Shown: in pieces, positions 1,618 through 13,265 of the stretch
Position numbering within the stretch: the stretch's first letter is position 1
Layout: each line of letters begins with the position of its first letter
Made by a program: the position numbers and the translations under genes
Notes under the pieces: model-generated
What the model saw: the letters and a program-made list of their open reading frames with translations, nothing else
Database searches by the model: none
Told to the model about the DNA's origin: nothing
Origin: a virus
Lineage: Duplodnaviria; Heunggongvirae; Uroviricota; Caudoviricetes
Reading direction: 5' to 3' (one strand)
DNA length: 13,265 nucleotides
Virus record (IMG/VR): IMGVR_UViG_2939152649_000005

Positions 1618-2615
1618 TACCCCATTACGCGCAAAGCCTTGTTCACCGTATTCTCACTCATCGGCTTACGTGGATCGTGATCGCCCACAAAAATCAGCTC
1701 TCAATTTCCGCTCATGCTTTTGATCTTTTCCAAAATACTTAGGGCCTGCCGCGACAAAGGTACAAGGTGTGGTGTCCGCATCTTCGAGCCACGCTGAGAA
1801 TGCTTGACTCCTTCCAGTTGCTCACGCTCACCTGGGATTGTCCACATAGCCGTTTCAAAATCTACTTCTGACCAGCGGGCAAAATGCAGCTCGCTCGAAC
1901 GGATGAAAACCAATAAAGTGAGTTCAACCGCCAGTCGAGTTAACGGTCTGCCAGAATAGTGATCTATGCGATGAAGTAATTCAGGTATACGGTTCAGTTC
2001 AAGAGCTGCACGGTGCTGTCTTTTCGCCGTAGCAACCGCACCTGCAATCTCTTGCGCGGGGTTGTAGTCGATTAAGCCGCTCTGAACGGCAAAGCGCATA
2101 ATCGCGGTAGTACGCTGCTGTAAACGGGCGGCAACTTCGAGCCGCCCGGATGACTCGACTGCTTTAATGGGTACAAGAAGATCCCGCGTCTTCAGTTCCG
2201 CAATGTTCCGCTTACCGATAGCAGTAAAGAGATTATCCTCCAGACTTTTCAAAACACGAGCGCTATGCGATGCCGACCACTTCTGATTGCTGGCGTGCCA
2301 GTCTCTGGCGACTACTTCAAACGTTATCGCCTCTTGTTCCTGTTCTACCTTAACAGCTTTCTTGTTTTCACTGGGATCGACACCATTAGCTAAAAGCTTA
2401 CGAGCCTCATCCCGGCGTGCCCTGGCATCCGCCAACGACACTTCGGGGTATTTCCCCAATGCCAGCATCTTCTCTTTACCGCCAAAGCGATAACGTAGCC
2501 GCCAGTATTTGGAGCCGTTAGGGTGAACCAGCAAAACCATGCCTTCACCGTCGGTCAGCTTATAGGCTTTTGCTTCAGGCTTAGCCGAACGAACCTTCAC
2601 ATCACTCAGAGCCAT
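1618..2615 (-). pseudogene. int: P4-type (DUF4102 + tyrosine recombinase) integrase, inactivated by an in-frame TGA at 1701-1703 and truncated at the IS junction
   Basis: The N-terminus MALSDVKVRSAKPEAKAYKLTDGEGMVLLVHPNGSKYWRLRYR... (ATG at 2613-2615, AAGGA upstream) is collinear with the intact paralog at 12003-13265. The ORF stops at ...KSMSGN*, but the same frame continues ELIFVGDHDPRKPMSENTVNKALRVMGY, aligning with SGKGEVIFPSDHDPKKVMSENTVNSALRVMGY of the paralog; the stop replaces a Gly codon. Homology ends at MGY, exactly at the IS terminus, so the C-terminal ~85 aa are missing. Confidence 0.85.
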
Positions 2616-2813
2616 GATGAGTATCCTTTCAAGGGTTCTGTGTGGGTACAAACATTATCGAACCGGGAAATACCCGCAGTTGTACCCGCATCAGTAAGTT
2701 GATGTAGATTGAATCAGGTTGACTTAGGTTGAGTGAAAAAGCGAGGAAAGCCTTGCGGATACTGGATTTTAGGCACAAAAAAAGACGTCCGTTGACGTCT
2801 ATTGATGTTCCGA

Positions 2814-2907: not shown

Positions 2908-3139
2908 ACTGAAATTTCACCACCATAACTTTGCTTGATTAATAACCAAATTACATGAATATTTTGGTTTGGGTCCGAATAACGGATACAAACCAGAACA
3001 GGACCTACCACCAGAACCGCTATTAGTTGTATCGAATTTGACACAATGCCCGCCCGCAGTAATCAAGCCGTCAAGCAAATATCGTTGTGCTGTTCATGAC
3101 ACACCTGATCCCTCAAGAATTGCTCACAGCGAGAAAAAT

Positions 3140-4195
3140 ATGGATACCCCGGACATAATTTCCGTACCAGAGGTCACTGCTGCGACAGAACCGCAGTCCT
3201 CTGCAGAATGCTTCACCTTTGGCGATCCCATTCCCGTACTGGACCGGCGCGAACTGCTGGACTATGTGGAATGCGCGCAGATGGATCGCTGGTATGAGCC
3301 GCCGGTGAGTTTTGCAGGGCTGGCACGTACCTACCGAGCAGCCGTACATCACAGTTCACCAATTGCCGTTAAGCGTGACATTCTCAGCAGTACCTACATC
3401 CCACACCGCCTGCTCAGTCAGCAGTCTTTTGCCCGTTTCGTTCAGGATTATCTGGTGTTTGGTAATGCCTATCTGGAAAAGCGTACTAACCGGCTGGGCG
3501 GCGTCCTCACACTGGAGCCAGCGCTGGCGAAATACACCCGGCGCGGCGTTGACCTGGAATCCTACTGGTTTGTTAACTATGGCCTGACAACGCAGCCTTA
3601 TGAGTTCACCAGAGGCAATATTTTTCACCTGATGGAACCGGATATTAACCAGGAAATTTACGGGCTGCCCGGCTACCTCTCCGCCATTCCGTCAACCCTG
3701 CTCAACGAGTCCGCAACGCTGTTCCGCCGGAAGTATTACATCAACGGCAGCCATGCGGGCTTCATCATGTACATGACCGACGCGGCGCAGAATCAGGAGG
3801 ATGTGAACAACATCCGCAAGGCAATGAAAAGCGCCAAAGGGCCGGGCAATTTCCGCAATCTGTTTATGTACTCACCCAATGGCAAAAAGGACGGCATCCA
3901 GATCATCCCGCTGTCAGAGGTGGCGGCGAAAGATGAGTTTCTGAACATCAAGAACGTGAGCCGTGATGACATGATGGCAGCGCACCGCGTGCCGCCGCAG
4001 ATGATGGGTATCATCCCCAGCAACACCGGCGGCTTTGGCGATGTGGAAAAGGCCAGCCGTGTTTTTGTCCGCAACGAACTGATGCCGCTGCAGAAGCGAC
4101 TGCAGGAGCTGAATAACTGGCTGGGCGAAGAAGTGATCTGCTTCGAGCCTTATTCTTTACAACTTGATGAAAGTGCTGATAGCAACAGGGGGTAA
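3140..4195 (+). CDS. Possible P2 gpQ-type phage portal protein (351 aa from the first ATG); the family assignment is tentative
   Basis: Long ORF with ordinary codon usage. The track ORF begins at a TTG at 2969; the first ATG is at 3140 (MDTPDIISVPEV...). Its size matches the ~340-350 aa I recall for P2 Q, and it is transcribed toward a structured candidate cos region, as P2 Q is. I cannot confirm the family from memory. Confidence 0.5.
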   Translation: MDTPDIISVPEVTAATEPQSSAECFTFGDPIPVLDRRELLDYVECAQMDRWYEPPVSFAGLARTYRAAVHHSSPIAVKRDILSSTYIPHRLLSQQSFARFVQDYLVFGNAYLEKRTNRLGGVLTLEPALAKYTRRGVDLESYWFVNYGLTTQPYEFTRGNIFHLMEPDINQEIYGLPGYLSAIPSTLLNESATLFRRKYYINGSHAGFIMYMTDAAQNQEDVNNIRKAMKSAKGPGNFRNLFMYSPNGKKDGIQIIPLSEVAAKDEFLNIKNVSRDDMMAAHRVPPQMMGIIPSNTGGFGDVEKASRVFVRNELMPLQKRLQELNNWLGEEVICFEPYSLQLDESADSNRG

Positions 4196-4198
4196 TGT

Positions 4199-4561
4199 AT
4201 GGGATGGATCGGCGTTGATCTGGATGGCACGCTGGCGGTGTACCCGCCAGAGAGCGGGGCGCTAATAGGTGATGCCATTCCCGGCATGGCGGAAAGGGTC
4301 CGCAAATGGCACAAGGATGATATTGAAGTACGAATTTTTACCGTCCGGGCTGGTTCGCGTGCCGGAGTGAAGCAAGTTAAAGCCTGGTTGAAAGCCAATG
4401 AACTGCCGGACCTGATGGTGACGAACGTTAAAGACAGCGGCATGGTGGAATTATGGGATGACAGAGCGATACGTGTTATCCGTAATACCGGTTCAGTATG
4501 CGCCGGTTGCAACGGCACATCGCAGTTCCACCACCATTCAGGAGATTTCACCAACTGCTGA
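4199..4561 (+). CDS. Small HAD-superfamily-like protein (putative minimal phosphatase/nucleotidase) with a Cys/His-rich C-terminal tail
   Basis: ATG at 4199 is 3 nt after the upstream stop and is preceded by AGGGGG. The N-terminus MGWIGVDLDGTLA matches HAD motif I (hhhhDxDGT). Motif-II-like Thr in RIFTVRAG, downstream lysines, and motif-IV-like ELWDDRA occur with spacing compatible with a cap-less HAD fold. The tail is SVCAGCNGTSQFHHHSGDFTNC. Confidence 0.6.
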   Translation: MGWIGVDLDGTLAVYPPESGALIGDAIPGMAERVRKWHKDDIEVRIFTVRAGSRAGVKQVKAWLKANELPDLMVTNVKDSGMVELWDDRAIRVIRNTGSVCAGCNGTSQFHHHSGDFTNC

Positions 4562-4592
4562 GCCGGCAGGCATTCCGTTAACCATTACCTGA

Positions 4593-4633
4593 ACGCCTCA
4601 GCAGCATTCTGCGGGGCGTTAGCTTTATTTATG
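4593..4633 (+). terminator. Rho-independent terminator candidate downstream of the HAD-like gene
   Basis: AACGCCTCAGCAG-CATT-CTGCGGGGCGTT forms a ~12-bp stem (one bulge, one G-U pair) with a 4-nt loop, followed by AGCTTTATTTAT. Confidence 0.5.
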
Positions 4634-4863
4634 GCATGAACCATGCCACGGCACATGCGCCGCTCAGGTTGCCATTTCCCCCCTCTGCGCGCGCTGCCCC
4701 CCACGCCTGCCCGCTTCGCTTAACAGAATGGTTTTCATGCACCCCGTAAATCGCCTCAGGAGCCGCCACACAAGGGCTTTCACGTCAAAAATGATGCATG
4801 AGACTCATGCGTTTTCATGCGCCATAGACATGCACTCATGCGCTCTCAGGCCAGCCAGGAAAA

Positions 4864-4916: not shown

Positions 4917-5189
4917 TCAGACAGGGATTTGCTGGCGGCTTGATAACTTTGATGCAGAGCCATAGCGATTGAGCGTTTGCTGTTGTTTTTCCGGCATTTG
5001 TGCTTTGTCTGATTCCTGTTCATTGCGCCGGGGCTTCATAATTATCTTATCCACACTTTCCAGAGCGGTAAATGTGCAGGAACATTCAAGATTCTGGCAC
5101 TGATACCATGAGCGTTTAACCGACGGTGCTTCATAGGCGGTGGTTCTGGCGTGTGCAACGGTGCCGCATTCAGGACATTTCAGCGCCAT
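4917..5189 (-). CDS. Ogr/Delta-family zinc-finger late-gene transcriptional activator
   Basis: 90-aa protein MALKCPECGTVAHARTTAYEAPSVKRSWYQCQNLECSCTFTALESVDKII... has the CxxC...CxNxxC arrangement and the HART/YxCxN motifs I recall from P2 Ogr and P4 Delta. Its ATG overlaps the stop of the upstream gene (ATGA), indicating translational coupling. Confidence 0.85.
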   Translation of the reverse strand: MALKCPECGTVAHARTTAYEAPSVKRSWYQCQNLECSCTFTALESVDKIIMKPRRNEQESDKAQMPEKQQQTLNRYGSASKLSSRQQIPV

Positions 5190-5950
5190 CAGATACCCTC
5201 CATATCACGGTTACGTTTCTGCAGCTCTTCACGTTCCTGACGGATCTTCATTTTGTGAAGGGCCGCCGGTGACGGGATTTTGCTTAAATCGACACGAGCC
5301 GCATAATCCGGCGCAACGCCCGCCAGTTTAAACACAGGGTCCTGTTCCGGCATCGCAGTGTTAGCAAGAGCCGGTTTGGTGATATGTTTGTGAATAAAGT
5401 CTTTCAGCAGTGTGTCCGGGTCATTAACTGAATTCACCACCCCCACAACGGCACTGGCTTCCCGCCCCATTGTGGTTTTGAGCAGGCTCAGTGTCTGGAT
5501 TAACGCCTTACCATGCGCCTGCATGAAGTCTTCCCAGATTTGCTTTGCGCGAATTTCCACAAGGGTGTTATGTGCGCTGATATACTGCCCGGCTAATTTC
5601 CCGGCTTCCTGCGGTAATAAGGCATTTTCGCTTTCCTGAGCTGCCAGCAGTTCATCAAAATCCTCAAGCGTTTCTCGTCCCAGCGCAATTTCCGTGCGCA
5701 GTTTTTTCATTTCCTTTGAGACTACGCCCTGACTTTCACGAAACAGCGTGCGCCACTCCTCATTCAGCGCGTTCGTCGTGGCTTCCATTTCAGCCCGGCG
5801 CTGGCGGATTGTCGCAATATTATCCGCTGCCGCTTTCTGCCGACGACGTGCTTCAAGCCATGCGCTTCTGGCTGTGTTCAGGGTTTCCATTGCCTGCTGC
5901 GTTACAGCCGGAAAAGTGGAAAGGTTGTTATTCTCTGCGGTGTTGTTCAT
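5189..5950 (-). CDS. Psu/Sid-family protein (P4 polarity-suppression / capsid-size-determination-like), 253 aa
   Basis: ATG at 5950 preceded by AGGAG. Segments QQAMETLNTARSAWL and EDFMQAHGKAL resemble regions of P4 Psu as I recall it (QQAFDTCQNNKAAWL, NDFMQQHGTAL). The protein is ~60 aa longer than P4 Psu, closer in length to Sid, and sits directly upstream of the delta-like gene as sid does in P4. Confidence 0.65.
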   Translation of the reverse strand: MNNTAENNNLSTFPAVTQQAMETLNTARSAWLEARRRQKAAADNIATIRQRRAEMEATTNALNEEWRTLFRESQGVVSKEMKKLRTEIALGRETLEDFDELLAAQESENALLPQEAGKLAGQYISAHNTLVEIRAKQIWEDFMQAHGKALIQTLSLLKTTMGREASAVVGVVNSVNDPDTLLKDFIHKHITKPALANTAMPEQDPVFKLAGVAPDYAARVDLSKIPSPAALHKMKIRQEREELQKRNRDMEGI

Positions 5951-5984: not shown

Positions 5985-6040
5985 TGTGTCGTGACTGACA
6001 CAAGCGCACTATCGGCGCTCAGTGTGTGGTGGCTGGCACA
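5985..6040 (-). promoter_or_regulatory. Candidate Ogr/Delta-dependent late promoter region upstream of the Psu/Sid-like gene: two TGT-N12-ACA dyads
   Basis: TGT-N12-ACA at 5985-6002 (inside the palindrome TTGTGTC-gtgact-GACACAA) and at 6023-6040. The second is centred ~80 nt upstream of the ATG, compatible with the -55 position described for P2/P4 late promoters. The motif is short, so chance is not excluded. Confidence 0.35.
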
Positions 6041-11333: not shown

Positions 11334-11972
11334 TCATTTCCCATACTTAATAATATCATTCCCAATTTTTACTTTTTTATAAAACGTGGCTTTCTTAACC
11401 CCTTCCAGTGAAATTTGATGCTCATTACAAAAAGAGATAATATCATTATATATCACACTATTATCACCATAACTTGCCTTACCATATTTTTTGAGCAACT
11501 CAATTAATAATGAAATTAATTTACAATTATTATTATCTTCATCCTCTTTTCTGTATTGCCCTCTGCCATTACTCCTTAACTTTTTACCAACTTCATATAA
11601 TTCACTTCCTCCTAACATCATTAAAATATCGCCCCAATCTTTATTTTTTACTTGTTGTAGCAATGCGTTATCAATTCTTTCCTTAATTTCAGGAGGTACA
11701 ATATCTTCCCTCTGAAAGATATAAGCGGCAGTTAATACTAAATTCGCTTCCACTTTTTGCGTGGCGGATATGTTTTTATATTCATTAATTAATTGTAGAT
11801 TTCTGGTTATTGCCTTTCTTAACCTAATAACCTCTTTTAATTGAATATCAGTTAATTCATCATTTTCTGTATCATAGTCAAAACCATTCATAGCAAGCGC
11901 TACTTCGTGCGGCGTAATGTATGTTAACCTATTAAAATAAAACAAATTATTATCAGATTGAGTGTTATTCAT
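11334..11972 (-). CDS. Hypothetical protein, 212 aa, strongly AT-rich orphan cargo gene directly downstream of the integrase
   Basis: ATG at 11972 with GGAG 8 nt upstream, 30 nt after the integrase stop on the same strand. Asn/Lys/Ile-rich composition and AT-rich codons contrast with the GC-rich replication module. No motif recognised. Confidence 0.7.
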   Translation of the reverse strand: MNNTQSDNNLFYFNRLTYITPHEVALAMNGFDYDTENDELTDIQLKEVIRLRKAITRNLQLINEYKNISATQKVEANLVLTAAYIFQREDIVPPEIKERIDNALLQQVKNKDWGDILMMLGGSELYEVGKKLRSNGRGQYRKEDEDNNNCKLISLLIELLKKYGKASYGDNSVIYNDIISFCNEHQISLEGVKKATFYKKVKIGNDIIKYGK

Positions 11973-12002: not shown

Positions 12003-13265
12003 TTATTTTCCATGCACACGCGCAAAATCATATGGTGTGATAGATCCATTCTTGTTAGCATCAATGTAATCAGCCCACCATTGCAGCATTAATTTTCTTT
12101 CTTCAAGATATTCAGATGTATGCATGTATGAACCTTTCACGTTTTTTCGTTCAACGTGACTTAGCTGTCTTTCAATGGCATCATCATTCCATAGTTTCGA
12201 CTCACTTAGCGCACCACGCGCCATAGTTCTAAAACCATGCCCACATACTTCTGTCTTCGTATCATATCCCATTACACGTAAGGCACTATTTACAGTATTT
12301 TCACTCATTACTTTTTTAGGATCATGATCGCTGGGAAATATAACCTCGCCTTTACCGCTCAAGGCATGTAAACGTTTAAAAATATCAAATGCTTGTTTGC
12401 TAAGCGGAACAATATGTTCAGTTTTCATCTTCATCCCACGCTCAGAGTGTTTTACGCCGGGAATAGGTTTACGAATTCCGGGTATCGTCCACTCGCTTCG
12501 TTCAAAGTTAACCTCACTCCATCGAGCAAAACGCATCTCACTTGAACGAATAAATGTGAGTAGCGTTAATTCAACGGCAAGCCGTGTCATTAGTCGCCCT
12601 TTATAGCGTGATAGTCTTTCAAGAAACTCAGGGATTCTTTTTGGGGGTAGTGCTGGGTGATGGGTTGCCTTAACGCTTAAAAGCGCTCCAGCCATATCAC
12701 TGGCAGGATTTGATTCAAGAAGGTCATTCTGCACACCGAAACGCATAATTGCGGTTACGCGCTGCATCAGTCGCTGCGCAACATCATGTTTACCTGCCGC
12801 ATCAACAGCTTTGATCGGATTGAGAAGCTGGCTGGTTCTCAACGTTCTGGCGTCAATTTGACCTATCGAGGGGAAAATATACTGCTCAAGCGTCAGCAGA
12901 ACGCGACGGCTATGATCTTCGCTCCAAGTTAGGTTACTTGCGTGCCATTGCCTTGCGATAGTTTCAAATAAATATGCCCCCTCAATTTCAGCTTGTGCCC
13001 CCTTTTGCTCAGCTTTGGGGTCAATGCCCTGAGACAACAATTTCTTTGCTGCATCGCGCTTACCCCTAGCCTCAGCCAAAGTGATCGTCGGGTATACACC
13101 AAAAGCGAGCCGATCTTCCTTTTTGTCAGATGGGCGGCGATATTTCATGCGCCAATACTTGGAACCTTTTGGGGAGACTTCAAGATACAAGCCGCCTCCA
13201 TCAGCCATTTTATAGGCTTTCTCTTTCGGCTTTGCGGTCTCTATCTGGCGAGCATTGAGTTTCAT
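12003..13265 (-). CDS. int: P4-type tyrosine integrase (DUF4102 N-terminal domain + catalytic domain), apparently intact, 420 aa
   Basis: The ORF runs from an ATG formed by the last 3 nt of the window to a stop at 12003. The N-terminus MKLNARQIETAKPKEKAYKMADGGGLYLEVSPKGSKYWRMKYR is collinear with the pseudogene at 1618-2615. It retains the C-terminal part the pseudogene lacks, including HGFRTMARGAL (box II H-x-x-R) and downstream Tyr residues. Confidence 0.9.
   Translation of the reverse strand: MKLNARQIETAKPKEKAYKMADGGGLYLEVSPKGSKYWRMKYRRPSDKKEDRLAFGVYPTITLAEARGKRDAAKKLLSQGIDPKAEQKGAQAEIEGAYLFETIARQWHASNLTWSEDHSRRVLLTLEQYIFPSIGQIDARTLRTSQLLNPIKAVDAAGKHDVAQRLMQRVTAIMRFGVQNDLLESNPASDMAGALLSVKATHHPALPPKRIPEFLERLSRYKGRLMTRLAVELTLLTFIRSSEMRFARWSEVNFERSEWTIPGIRKPIPGVKHSERGMKMKTEHIVPLSKQAFDIFKRLHALSGKGEVIFPSDHDPKKVMSENTVNSALRVMGYDTKTEVCGHGFRTMARGALSESKLWNDDAIERQLSHVERKNVKGSYMHTSEYLEERKLMLQWWADYIDANKNGSITPYDFARVHGK

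Follow-up and report, generated by a model that had tools for sequence, protein, structure and literature searches.

The 13,265-nt stretch of DNA analyzed here (IMG/VR virus record IMGVR_UViG_2939152649_000005; hereafter, "the window") comes from the leuX tRNA-Leu island of the Escherichia coli NCTC11023 chromosome, to which it is 100% identical, and its gene content is that of a P4-like satellite. Between the satellite's portal gene and a cos-like site lies an open reading frame (ORF; positions 4199–4561) that encodes a 120-residue protein of the HAD superfamily. This ORF is a real gene under constraint, and its product is predicted to be a minimal HAD-type phosphatase that is probably active. 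With modest confidence, we favor a composite reading of its function: the gene encodes a HAD phosphatase that is co-expressed late with the portal, it is optional late-operon cargo at the portal–cos junction of P2-like phages rather than a portal cofactor, and its role is accessory. The enzyme type is ordinary; the context is what makes it interesting.

The catalytic motifs provide the first line of evidence. In an alignment of 45 diverse homologs, the invariant columns include D7, L8, D9, G10, T11, T48, K78, and D87, while D88, R50, and R89 are kept in at least 90% of the sequences. All of the 120 best database matches contain DLDGT; in some copies from P2-like genomes, motif I reads DFDGV. 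A first-pass annotation of this DNA, made from the letters alone, had identified the string VDLDGTLA at residues 6–13, which is borne out (nucleotides 4214–4237). Its numbering of the catalytic aspartates (D8 and D10) was one too high; they are D7 and D9. The candidate motifs II–IV that it named are right, but the conservation of T48, K78, and D87, not the spacing that it had invoked, is what identifies them. The motif I aspartates, on whose conservation that assignment depended, are invariant across the 45 homologs.

The predicted structure agrees with the motifs. The AlphaFold model (mean pLDDT 84.8, pTM 0.77) has a confident alpha/beta core, and disorder is limited to residues 108–120 (pLDDT < 50). 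This core is the Rossmann-like one common to solved HAD enzymes, as the first-pass annotation had anticipated, and every top structural match returned by Foldseek is a HAD protein. Because the catalytic motifs are invariant and the model matches HAD structures only, both the fold and a probable phosphatase activity are supported. The conserved core comprises only about 100 residues, and a cap domain is absent; the earlier remark that this would be among the smallest HAD proteins is thus a fair one, as the protein is near the fold's lower limit. A profile search of PDB sequences yielded 1xpj (E = 2.7e-4), in which the DxDGT, TAR, K, and DDRAV motifs line up with those of the HAD protein, and 2obb with a non-significant E-value (0.96); it gave nothing else. 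By sequence and by modeled fold, then, the protein belongs to the HAD superfamily, with 1xpj and 2obb as its nearest solved relatives.

Curated family models were less informative. No HAD model in Pfam matched the 120-residue protein above threshold, and the other scores also fell short: 15.8 bits for Pfam LNS2 (cut-off 27.7) and 14.4 bits for TIGR01662, the HAD-IIIA model (cut-off 44.6). PHROG families 1238 and 415 matched at about 1e-9; their annotations are "phosphoheptose isomerase" and "polynucleotide kinase".

The ORF also bears the marks of selection at the nucleotide level. Compared with a metagenomic copy (L016) that differs from it at 27 nucleotides and that itself has an in-frame stop at codon 53, the gene has a dN/dS of approximately 0.10. 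The identical protein occurs on 338 contigs, and the named members of the cluster come from Salmonella, Escherichia, Kluyvera, Enterobacter, Citrobacter, and Pantoea.

The C-terminal tail was examined separately. The first-pass annotation had described the last 25 or so residues as a Cys/His-rich, metal-binding appendage. The cysteine part of this description stands: a CxxC motif and a C-terminal Cys (C101, C104, and C120) are conserved in the sub-lineage of P2-like phages. The histidine part does not, since the His positions vary and two copies (P0008 and L021) have none, and the segment from C101 to C120 is 20 residues long. The pattern C-x2-C-x(12-19)-[TA]-[DN]-C-COOH is found in the closest database relatives (P0001–P0008 and P0018) and in the IMG/VR copies from P2-like genomes with readable tails. 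It is independent of gene position, occurring in copies located after the portal gene, near gpA, or amid baseplate genes. The Cys tail is restricted to the P2-like-phage copies; in most of the family the protein stops within a few residues of a conserved N-T-G, with a median tail of 10 residues, and other clades have other appendages ("PCC" in some phages, FLGTSYFARPKAPILPDE in Opitutales). Four conserved metal ligands, as expected of a Cys/His zinc appendage, were not found, as only the three cysteines are conserved, and the AlphaFold model contains no confident tail structure. We interpret the tail as an element for specificity or for a partner that is particular to this lineage; it may also hold a metal site, formed by the three cysteines or shared by subunits.

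We turn to the signals that would govern expression. The tight coupling to the upstream portal-like gene that had been proposed is evident: the portal stop codon (TAA, 4193–4195) is separated from the HAD start codon by a 3-nt spacer (TGT), and a Shine-Dalgarno-like AGGGGG lies within the 3' end of the portal gene. A consensus scan from the portal start to the HAD ORF detected no sigma-70-like promoter. The motif TGT-N12-ACA, which we take to be the recognition motif of Ogr/Delta, matches six times in the window (3.0 expected), and four of the six matches form two pairs, one 5' of the portal gene and the other directly 5' of the Psu/Sid-like gene. These dyads look like late-activator sites and would place the portal-HAD unit of the satellite under late control. 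Downstream of the HAD gene is a GC-rich hairpin followed by a U-rich tract. Because the terminator consensus scan did not call this hairpin and the z-score of the 84-nt region was only −1.4, we consider it plausible, and not more, that it ends the portal-HAD unit as an intrinsic terminator. Beyond the hairpin is the cos-like site, the flanks of which align with the P4 cos text (Rousset et al. 2022, supplement) and with the equivalent place in a P2-like prophage (L002). From this arrangement we infer that the HAD gene is the last gene of a portal-HAD transcription unit, with the hairpin and then cos downstream.

Evidence on the origin of the gene comes from a 453-bp block that is 100% identical between the satellite and a P2-like prophage of E. 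coli ECONIH5. The block, which corresponds to L002 10940–11392, takes in the final 63 nt of the portal gene and the complete HAD gene and runs on for another 24 nt; the nearest mismatches in the window are at 4132 and 4586. The flanking portal DNA is only 76–93% identical. Because an identical block sits inside such divergent flanks, the cassette was either exchanged recently between helper and satellite or obtained by both from one donor. These comparisons indicate that the satellite recently acquired the HAD gene plus the 3' end of the portal gene, from a helper-type phage or from a common donor. The HAD gene is 100% identical in E. coli strains ECONIH5 and A29, and in ECONIH5 the same accession (WP_001547634.1) is annotated within a complete P2-like prophage in the order terminase P, portal Q, HAD gene, HEPN gene, DinI, and gpA.

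Among 10 places examined that encode the exact protein, half are P2-like prophages (N-O-P-Q-HAD-...-A) and half P4-like satellites (portal-HAD-Delta-Psu-alpha), and the portal-HAD spacer is 3 nt in all 10. Among 5,426 complete E. coli genomes, nine have the HAD gene, two of these as partial copies only. It is present in a P2-like prophage in only two complete genomes, compared with 1,459 that match a portal-region query, mostly via P2-like Q genes. The satellite layout with both portal and Delta occurs in 14 of the 5,426 genomes; five of these contain the HAD gene and nine a DUF4062 gene. The slot is therefore swappable. Because the protein is identical in P2-like prophages, because its slot can be filled by another gene, and because nearly all E. 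coli P2-like prophages do without it, we conclude that the gene is more aptly regarded as optional cargo than as a portal cofactor. The cassette can also be inverted: one IMG/VR phage (L023) contains the HAD gene in the opposite orientation and truncated.

Two functional proposals of the first-pass annotation fare poorly in this light. It had suggested that the phosphatase might serve helper exploitation, yet the same protein is encoded by helper-type P2-like prophages themselves. It had also supposed that the portal and HAD genes work together. In a strict sense this is not supported, given the many E. coli P2-like prophages that lack the gene and the DUF4062 swap in sister satellites, and it is further weakened by tail-bearing copies at other P2-like positions and by the fact that most homologs reside in unrelated phage modules or in cellular genomes.

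The alternative occupant of the slot merits a description of its own. In the nine E. coli genomes, the portal–cos slot (4153–4680 in the window) is filled by a gene on the opposite strand that encodes a DUF4062-domain protein of 321 residues; an example is at L003 9300–10265, in a sister satellite of E. coli MDK6L1. A PADLOC scan of this gene returned no match. It is a candidate for alternative cargo or for a defence gene.

The HAD protein belongs to a very large family. A word-indexed search found 1,151 homologs, and an exhaustive profile search found 5,497 clusters at 50% identity with E ≤ 1e-3 and 3,873 with E ≤ 1e-10; no Pfam or NCBIfam model above threshold fits this family. It has phage branches and cellular branches. 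Among 80 IMG/VR loci, a gpQ-type portal gene adjoins the HAD gene in each of the ten closest relatives, with portal identities of 55–98% and HAD identities of 43–99%. Because these ten come from one viral family, they represent one association plus descent. In other myovirus-like contigs, the HAD gene is between the tape-measure gene and gpU/gpD. Most homologs belong either to cellular genomes or to modules for replication or nucleotide metabolism in unrelated phages. Copies lie next to Dam methylase, ParB, or DNA polymerase A genes, near T4-type portals or terminases, adjacent to ThyX, RNR, DNA polymerase, or MazG genes, and, in large metagenomic phages, near RecA, Metallophos, clamp-loader, and RNR genes. 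In podoviruses of Cronobacter and Vibrio, a HAD-DUF3310 fusion directly follows ThyX.

A scan of GTDB genomes recovered 545 relatives, many of them chromosomal copies in Verrucomicrobiota (Opitutales) and Granulosicoccaceae (loci L110–L184; e.g., L128 4854–5429 and L151 3909–5417). A gene for an Rrf2 regulator lies immediately downstream in 31 loci (Opitutales copies), and the other conserved cellular neighbors encode phosphatidylserine decarboxylase, a sulfatase, thioredoxin reductase, and a Leu/Phe-tRNA-protein transferase. In view of these conserved cellular neighborhoods, the notion that the family is phage-borne was dropped. Because the domain is used by cells and phages alike, family membership does not imply a role in conflict. 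The Opitutales copies examined have a conserved C-terminal extension of their own, and in several Opitutales-type genomes a TerC membrane protein is fused to the HAD domain.

Domain fusions bear on the question of substrate. Five of ten large proteins tested had an InPase domain fused to the homologous HAD domain. Another fusion joins it to 2H and LigD 3'-phosphoesterase domains (and HD) with DUF192, and yet another to SNF2; further partners are Nudix, the XkdF prohead protease, lysozyme, and a PF04860 portal. Taken together, the fusion partners and neighbors are suggestive of a substrate that either derives from a nucleotide or is a phosphate at the end of a DNA or RNA strand. Two individual proteins were recorded as well. 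In one phage (L068 230–766), the HAD domain is fused to a RecBCD-inhibitor domain of the T7 gp5.9 type (Pfam E = 3e-17), which ties the domain to DNA-end protection in that phage. In one uncultured phage, a 779-residue protein joins portal and HAD domains (IMG/VR contigs L087, L088, L089, and L091; approximately 2067–6885 in L087), and it is followed by an 828-residue protein that contains a topoisomerase IB domain and also matches head-morphogenesis PHROGs; the two are candidates for a packaged effector set. The four contigs were rejected as independent support: they are 100% identical to each other and hence represent one phage.

These observations can be assembled into a putative mechanism. 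The protein would be a cap-less phosphomonoesterase of about 100 residues from the HAD superfamily. By analogy with the HAD mechanism, Asp7 would attack the phosphate to form an aspartyl-phosphate and Asp9 would act as the acid/base; Thr48 and Lys78 would hold the phosphoryl group, and Asp87 and Asp88, together with Asp7, would bind Mg2+. Because there is no cap domain, specificity would have to lie in the lineage-specific C-terminal tail, in oligomerization, or in a macromolecular substrate. From the domains fused to it, its similarity to Pnkp and to class C nucleotidases, and the missing cap we infer, more weakly, a nucleotide-derived or nucleic-acid-end substrate; the classes named in the first-pass annotation, nucleotides and phosphorylated DNA or RNA ends, are still the most plausible candidates. 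The paired dyads and the lack of an internal promoter suggest that the gene would be co-expressed late with the portal in an Ogr/Delta-dependent manner. The role would be in accessory phage fitness or counter-defence, as opposed to portal assembly or to an anti-helper trick specific to the satellite.

Several points weigh against this proposal. The dyad motifs are the sole basis of the late-promoter assignment. One identical block does not reveal whether the cassette passed from helper to satellite or in the other direction. The fusion partners are too varied to point to a single substrate. The cellular branch, with its housekeeping neighbors and TerC fusions, portrays the domain as a general-purpose module. 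Lastly, the location of the gene is a published anti-phage hotspot, which favors a role in defence.

That last alternative holds that the gene is anti-phage cargo that protects the lysogen, for example by dephosphorylating nucleotides that an incoming phage needs. Rousset et al. (2022) described the cos-proximal region, between gpA and gpQ in P2 and near cos in P4, as a variable anti-phage hotspot. The HAD gene lies just there in both kinds of element, between the portal gene and cos, with alternative cargo in sister elements and an invertible cassette, and HAD hydrolases are among the validated or candidate systems of this hotspot. We nevertheless regard a defensive function as unlikely. Being joined to a late portal operon by a 3-nt spacer, with no detectable promoter of its own, the gene should be silent in a lysogen. 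It encodes a lone 120-residue enzyme with no sensor, most relatives of which belong to lytic or jumbo phages or to cellular chromosomes. The published hotspot HADs match Pfam HAD_2 (one of them within the "Hydrolase + 4TM" system), a match that the 120-residue protein does not have at threshold, as noted above. No PADLOC model matches it, and running PADLOC on the portal, the 212-residue ORF (see below), and the alternative cargo genes also turned up nothing useful. The parts of the Rousset et al. (2022) supplementary tables that were examined do not contain the protein's accession.

A similarly low probability attaches to the idea that the phosphatase is a portal- or head-associated virion protein, bound or packaged, that is delivered with the DNA and acts at the DNA end or in the new host cell. 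The constancy of the gpQ-type portal beside the ten closest relatives, even as portal identity drops to 55% and HAD identity to 43%, speaks for it. So do the PF04860 portal-HAD fusion, the XkdF prohead-protease fusions, and a fusion protein encoded beside a relative of the N-terminus of the 828-residue protein with head-morphogenesis PHROG matches; enzymatic domains fused to portal or MuF proteins have been inferred to be packaged and injected (Iyer et al. 2017). However, the portal fusion comes from a single phage, and adjacency within one viral family counts as one event in evolution that was then inherited. Particles are formed without the HAD gene by nearly all P2-like prophages of E. coli, and copies with the tail are found at other sites in P2-like genomes (near gpA, amid baseplate genes, and from the stretch that separates the tape-measure gene from gpU).

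An elaboration of this idea appears a little more doubtful still. It posits a large, previously undescribed class of conflict phosphatases linked to the portal, whether adjacent to it, fused to it, or within head-packaged polyvalent proteins, and delivered with the DNA. Such an enzyme would dephosphorylate an immune nucleotide of the host or a nucleic-acid end that is damaged or blocked; the tail with its three cysteines would be a docking or specificity element, and the satellite would have taken a private portal plus effector from its helper.

We find it quite improbable that the protein is a sugar-phosphate phosphatase of the 1xpj/AfhF type that serves DNA hypermodification or surface polysaccharide. 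The proposal draws on the standing of 1xpj as the only significant solved sequence relative in the profile search, on the presence of AfhF (9iqw) and phage "capsule biosynthesis phosphatases" among the structural matches, and on the action of 1xpj-like proteins on arabinose phosphates in RB69, DLP3, and HY126 (PMC13326640); the objections to it are taken up with AfhF below. Finally, that the ORF is spurious or an inactive remnant, as the absence of a curated family above threshold, the in-frame stop in L016, and the truncated inverted copy in L023 might suggest, is effectively refuted by thousands of homologs with invariant catalytic residues, by the low dN/dS, and by the occurrence of an identical sequence across genera of Enterobacteriaceae.

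The features of the window are collected in the table below. The helper-subversion genes (Ogr/Delta-like and Psu/Sid-like) are on the opposite side of cos from the HAD gene. Between the alpha-type primase and the 212-residue ORF lie AlpA and small regulatory ORFs. The 212-residue ORF has no further family match, and its PADLOC result was blank; a second variable slot may exist here, with this ORF as its cargo. At the left end, the IS3 element and the second integrase suggest a tandem or decayed island beside the satellite. When the tRNA-Leu end of the island was compared with its portal end in search of an att direct repeat, nothing beyond a 12-mer emerged, so that no such repeat marks the far boundary of the satellite. 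This P4-like satellite has an intact gpQ-type portal gene of its own although it is a capsid hijacker, and we found no mention of portal genes in P4-like elements in the satellite surveys consulted.

Table. Positions of features in the window.
Feature	Position	Strand	Remarks
IS3-family element	orfB 350–1240; orfA 1237–1563	−	abuts second integrase; IS3 plus integrase region 51–2651
Second P4-type integrase gene, truncated	1701–2651		RefSeq pseudogene; C-terminus missing
Paired TGT-N12-ACA dyads, candidate Ogr/Delta-type late-activator sites	3028–3045; 3086–3103	.	5' of portal ATG
Portal gene, P2-gpQ-type, intact, 351 aa	3140–4195	+	TIGR01540 portal_PBSX, 345 bits; phrog_68, E = 1.8e-171; RefSeq label "portal protein"
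453-bp cassette	4133–4585	+	100% identical to P2-like prophage (E. coli ECONIH5)
Shine-Dalgarno-like AGGGGG	4187–4192	+	6 nt 5' of HAD ATG; read from sequence
HAD gene, 120 aa	4199–4561	+	ATG 4199–4201; TGA 4559–4561
Motif I, D7-L-D9-G-T11	4217–4231	+	invariant
Motif II, T48	4340–4342	+	invariant
Motif III, K78	4430–4432	+	invariant
Motif IV, D87-D88	4457–4462	+	D87 invariant; D88 at least 90%
C-terminal tail, C101-A-G-C104...T-N-C120	4499–4558	+	three Cys kept in P2-like-phage sub-lineage
Hairpin (4592–4620), then U-rich tract; candidate intrinsic terminator	4592–4632	+	12-pair stem
cos-like site GGCGTGGGGGGCAGCGCGC	4689–4707	−	13 of 19 positions match P4 cohesive end GGCGAGGCGGGGAAAGCAC
Ogr/Delta-like gene	4917–5189	−	Pfam Ogr_Delta, 1.1e-16
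Psu/Sid-like gene	5189–5950	−	Pfam Psu, 3e-8; phrog_6165, 7.8e-95
Second TGT-N12-ACA pair	5985–6002; 6023–6040	.	directly 5' of Psu/Sid-like gene
Alpha-type primase, 890 aa	6351–9023		
212-aa ORF between integrase and alpA	11334–11972	−	sub-threshold Cap4-nuclease match, E = 0.039; conserved in sister satellite
P4-type integrase	12003–13265	−	right end of window

How does this protein compare with characterized systems? Its closest solved relatives, VC0232 (1xpj) and BT_0820 (2obb), are minimal HAD proteins from structural genomics that are 22–24% identical to it and do not have the Cys tail. They suggest no substrate, as both are uncharacterized; a literature search on 1xpj, 2obb, VC0232, BT0820, and phage HAD anti-defence phosphatases found no characterization of this family. 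T4 Pnkp has a kinase domain, which the HAD protein lacks, and no ligase gene is nearby; neither a kinase nor a ligase was found in the window or in the P2-like prophage. Comparison with the T4 Pnkp phosphatase domain by hhalign gave a probability of only 30% over motifs I–II only. Pfam HAD_PNKP did not match the HAD protein at E ≤ 0.1, and its close homologs scored 13.6–17 bits (cut-off 27.6). The hhalign match is too weak to place the protein in the T4 Pnkp group. GmhB, of the HAD-IIIA group, is among the Foldseek matches with a TM-score of approximately 0.41. It binds zinc via Cys and His residues, and its zinc site is an internal loop rather than a C-terminal tail. The TIGR01662 score, far under its cut-off, speaks against membership in this group.

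AfhF (HY126, 9iqw), RB69 gp51, and DLP3 gp81 are arabinose-phosphate phosphatases in a sugar-activation cluster for DNA hypermodification (PMC13326640). AfhF is 14% identical to the 120-residue protein, and no sugar-activation or glycosylation cluster was found in the window or in the related P2-like loci.

The anti-T7 system of the P4 hotspot reported by Rousset et al. (2022) consists of a HAD-like hydrolase and a transmembrane protein. Like it, the gene studied here belongs to the HAD superfamily and is situated in the variable region near cos in a P4-like satellite. In the published HAD, however, the matches to Pfam HAD_2 and Hydrolase extend across more than 200 residues, and a partner with four transmembrane segments is required, whereas the present protein has 120 residues, neither of these matches, no partner gene, and no PADLOC match.

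The polyvalent-protein effectors of Iyer et al. (2017) include an InPase domain fused to a portal in BcepF1, and portal/MuF fusion was taken there to signify packaging and injection. The HAD domain resembles this set in occurring within multidomain proteins (with InPase, 2H, LigD-PE, HD, and SNF2, and with portal, XkdF, and lysozyme) and as solo copies by portals. It differs in that the main text of that paper describes no HAD or phosphatase domain, packaging was inferred there, and the HAD family includes cellular members. The fusion partners suggest nucleotide or nucleic-acid-end chemistry in phage-host conflict.

A 2026 NAR survey found exchange between helpers and satellites to be almost absent for defence genes, with one such case. 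The cassette described here is a record of recent gene exchange, with sharp borders, that involved a P2-like helper and a P4-like satellite, in a small lineage of P4-like satellites that carries its own gpQ-type portal gene. It also draws attention to a very large family of HAD proteins of about 100 residues that is near the minimum size for the fold and that no curated model describes. Were the phosphatase delivered by the virion, or were it to degrade an immune signal, it would constitute a new enzymatic class of phage counter-defence.

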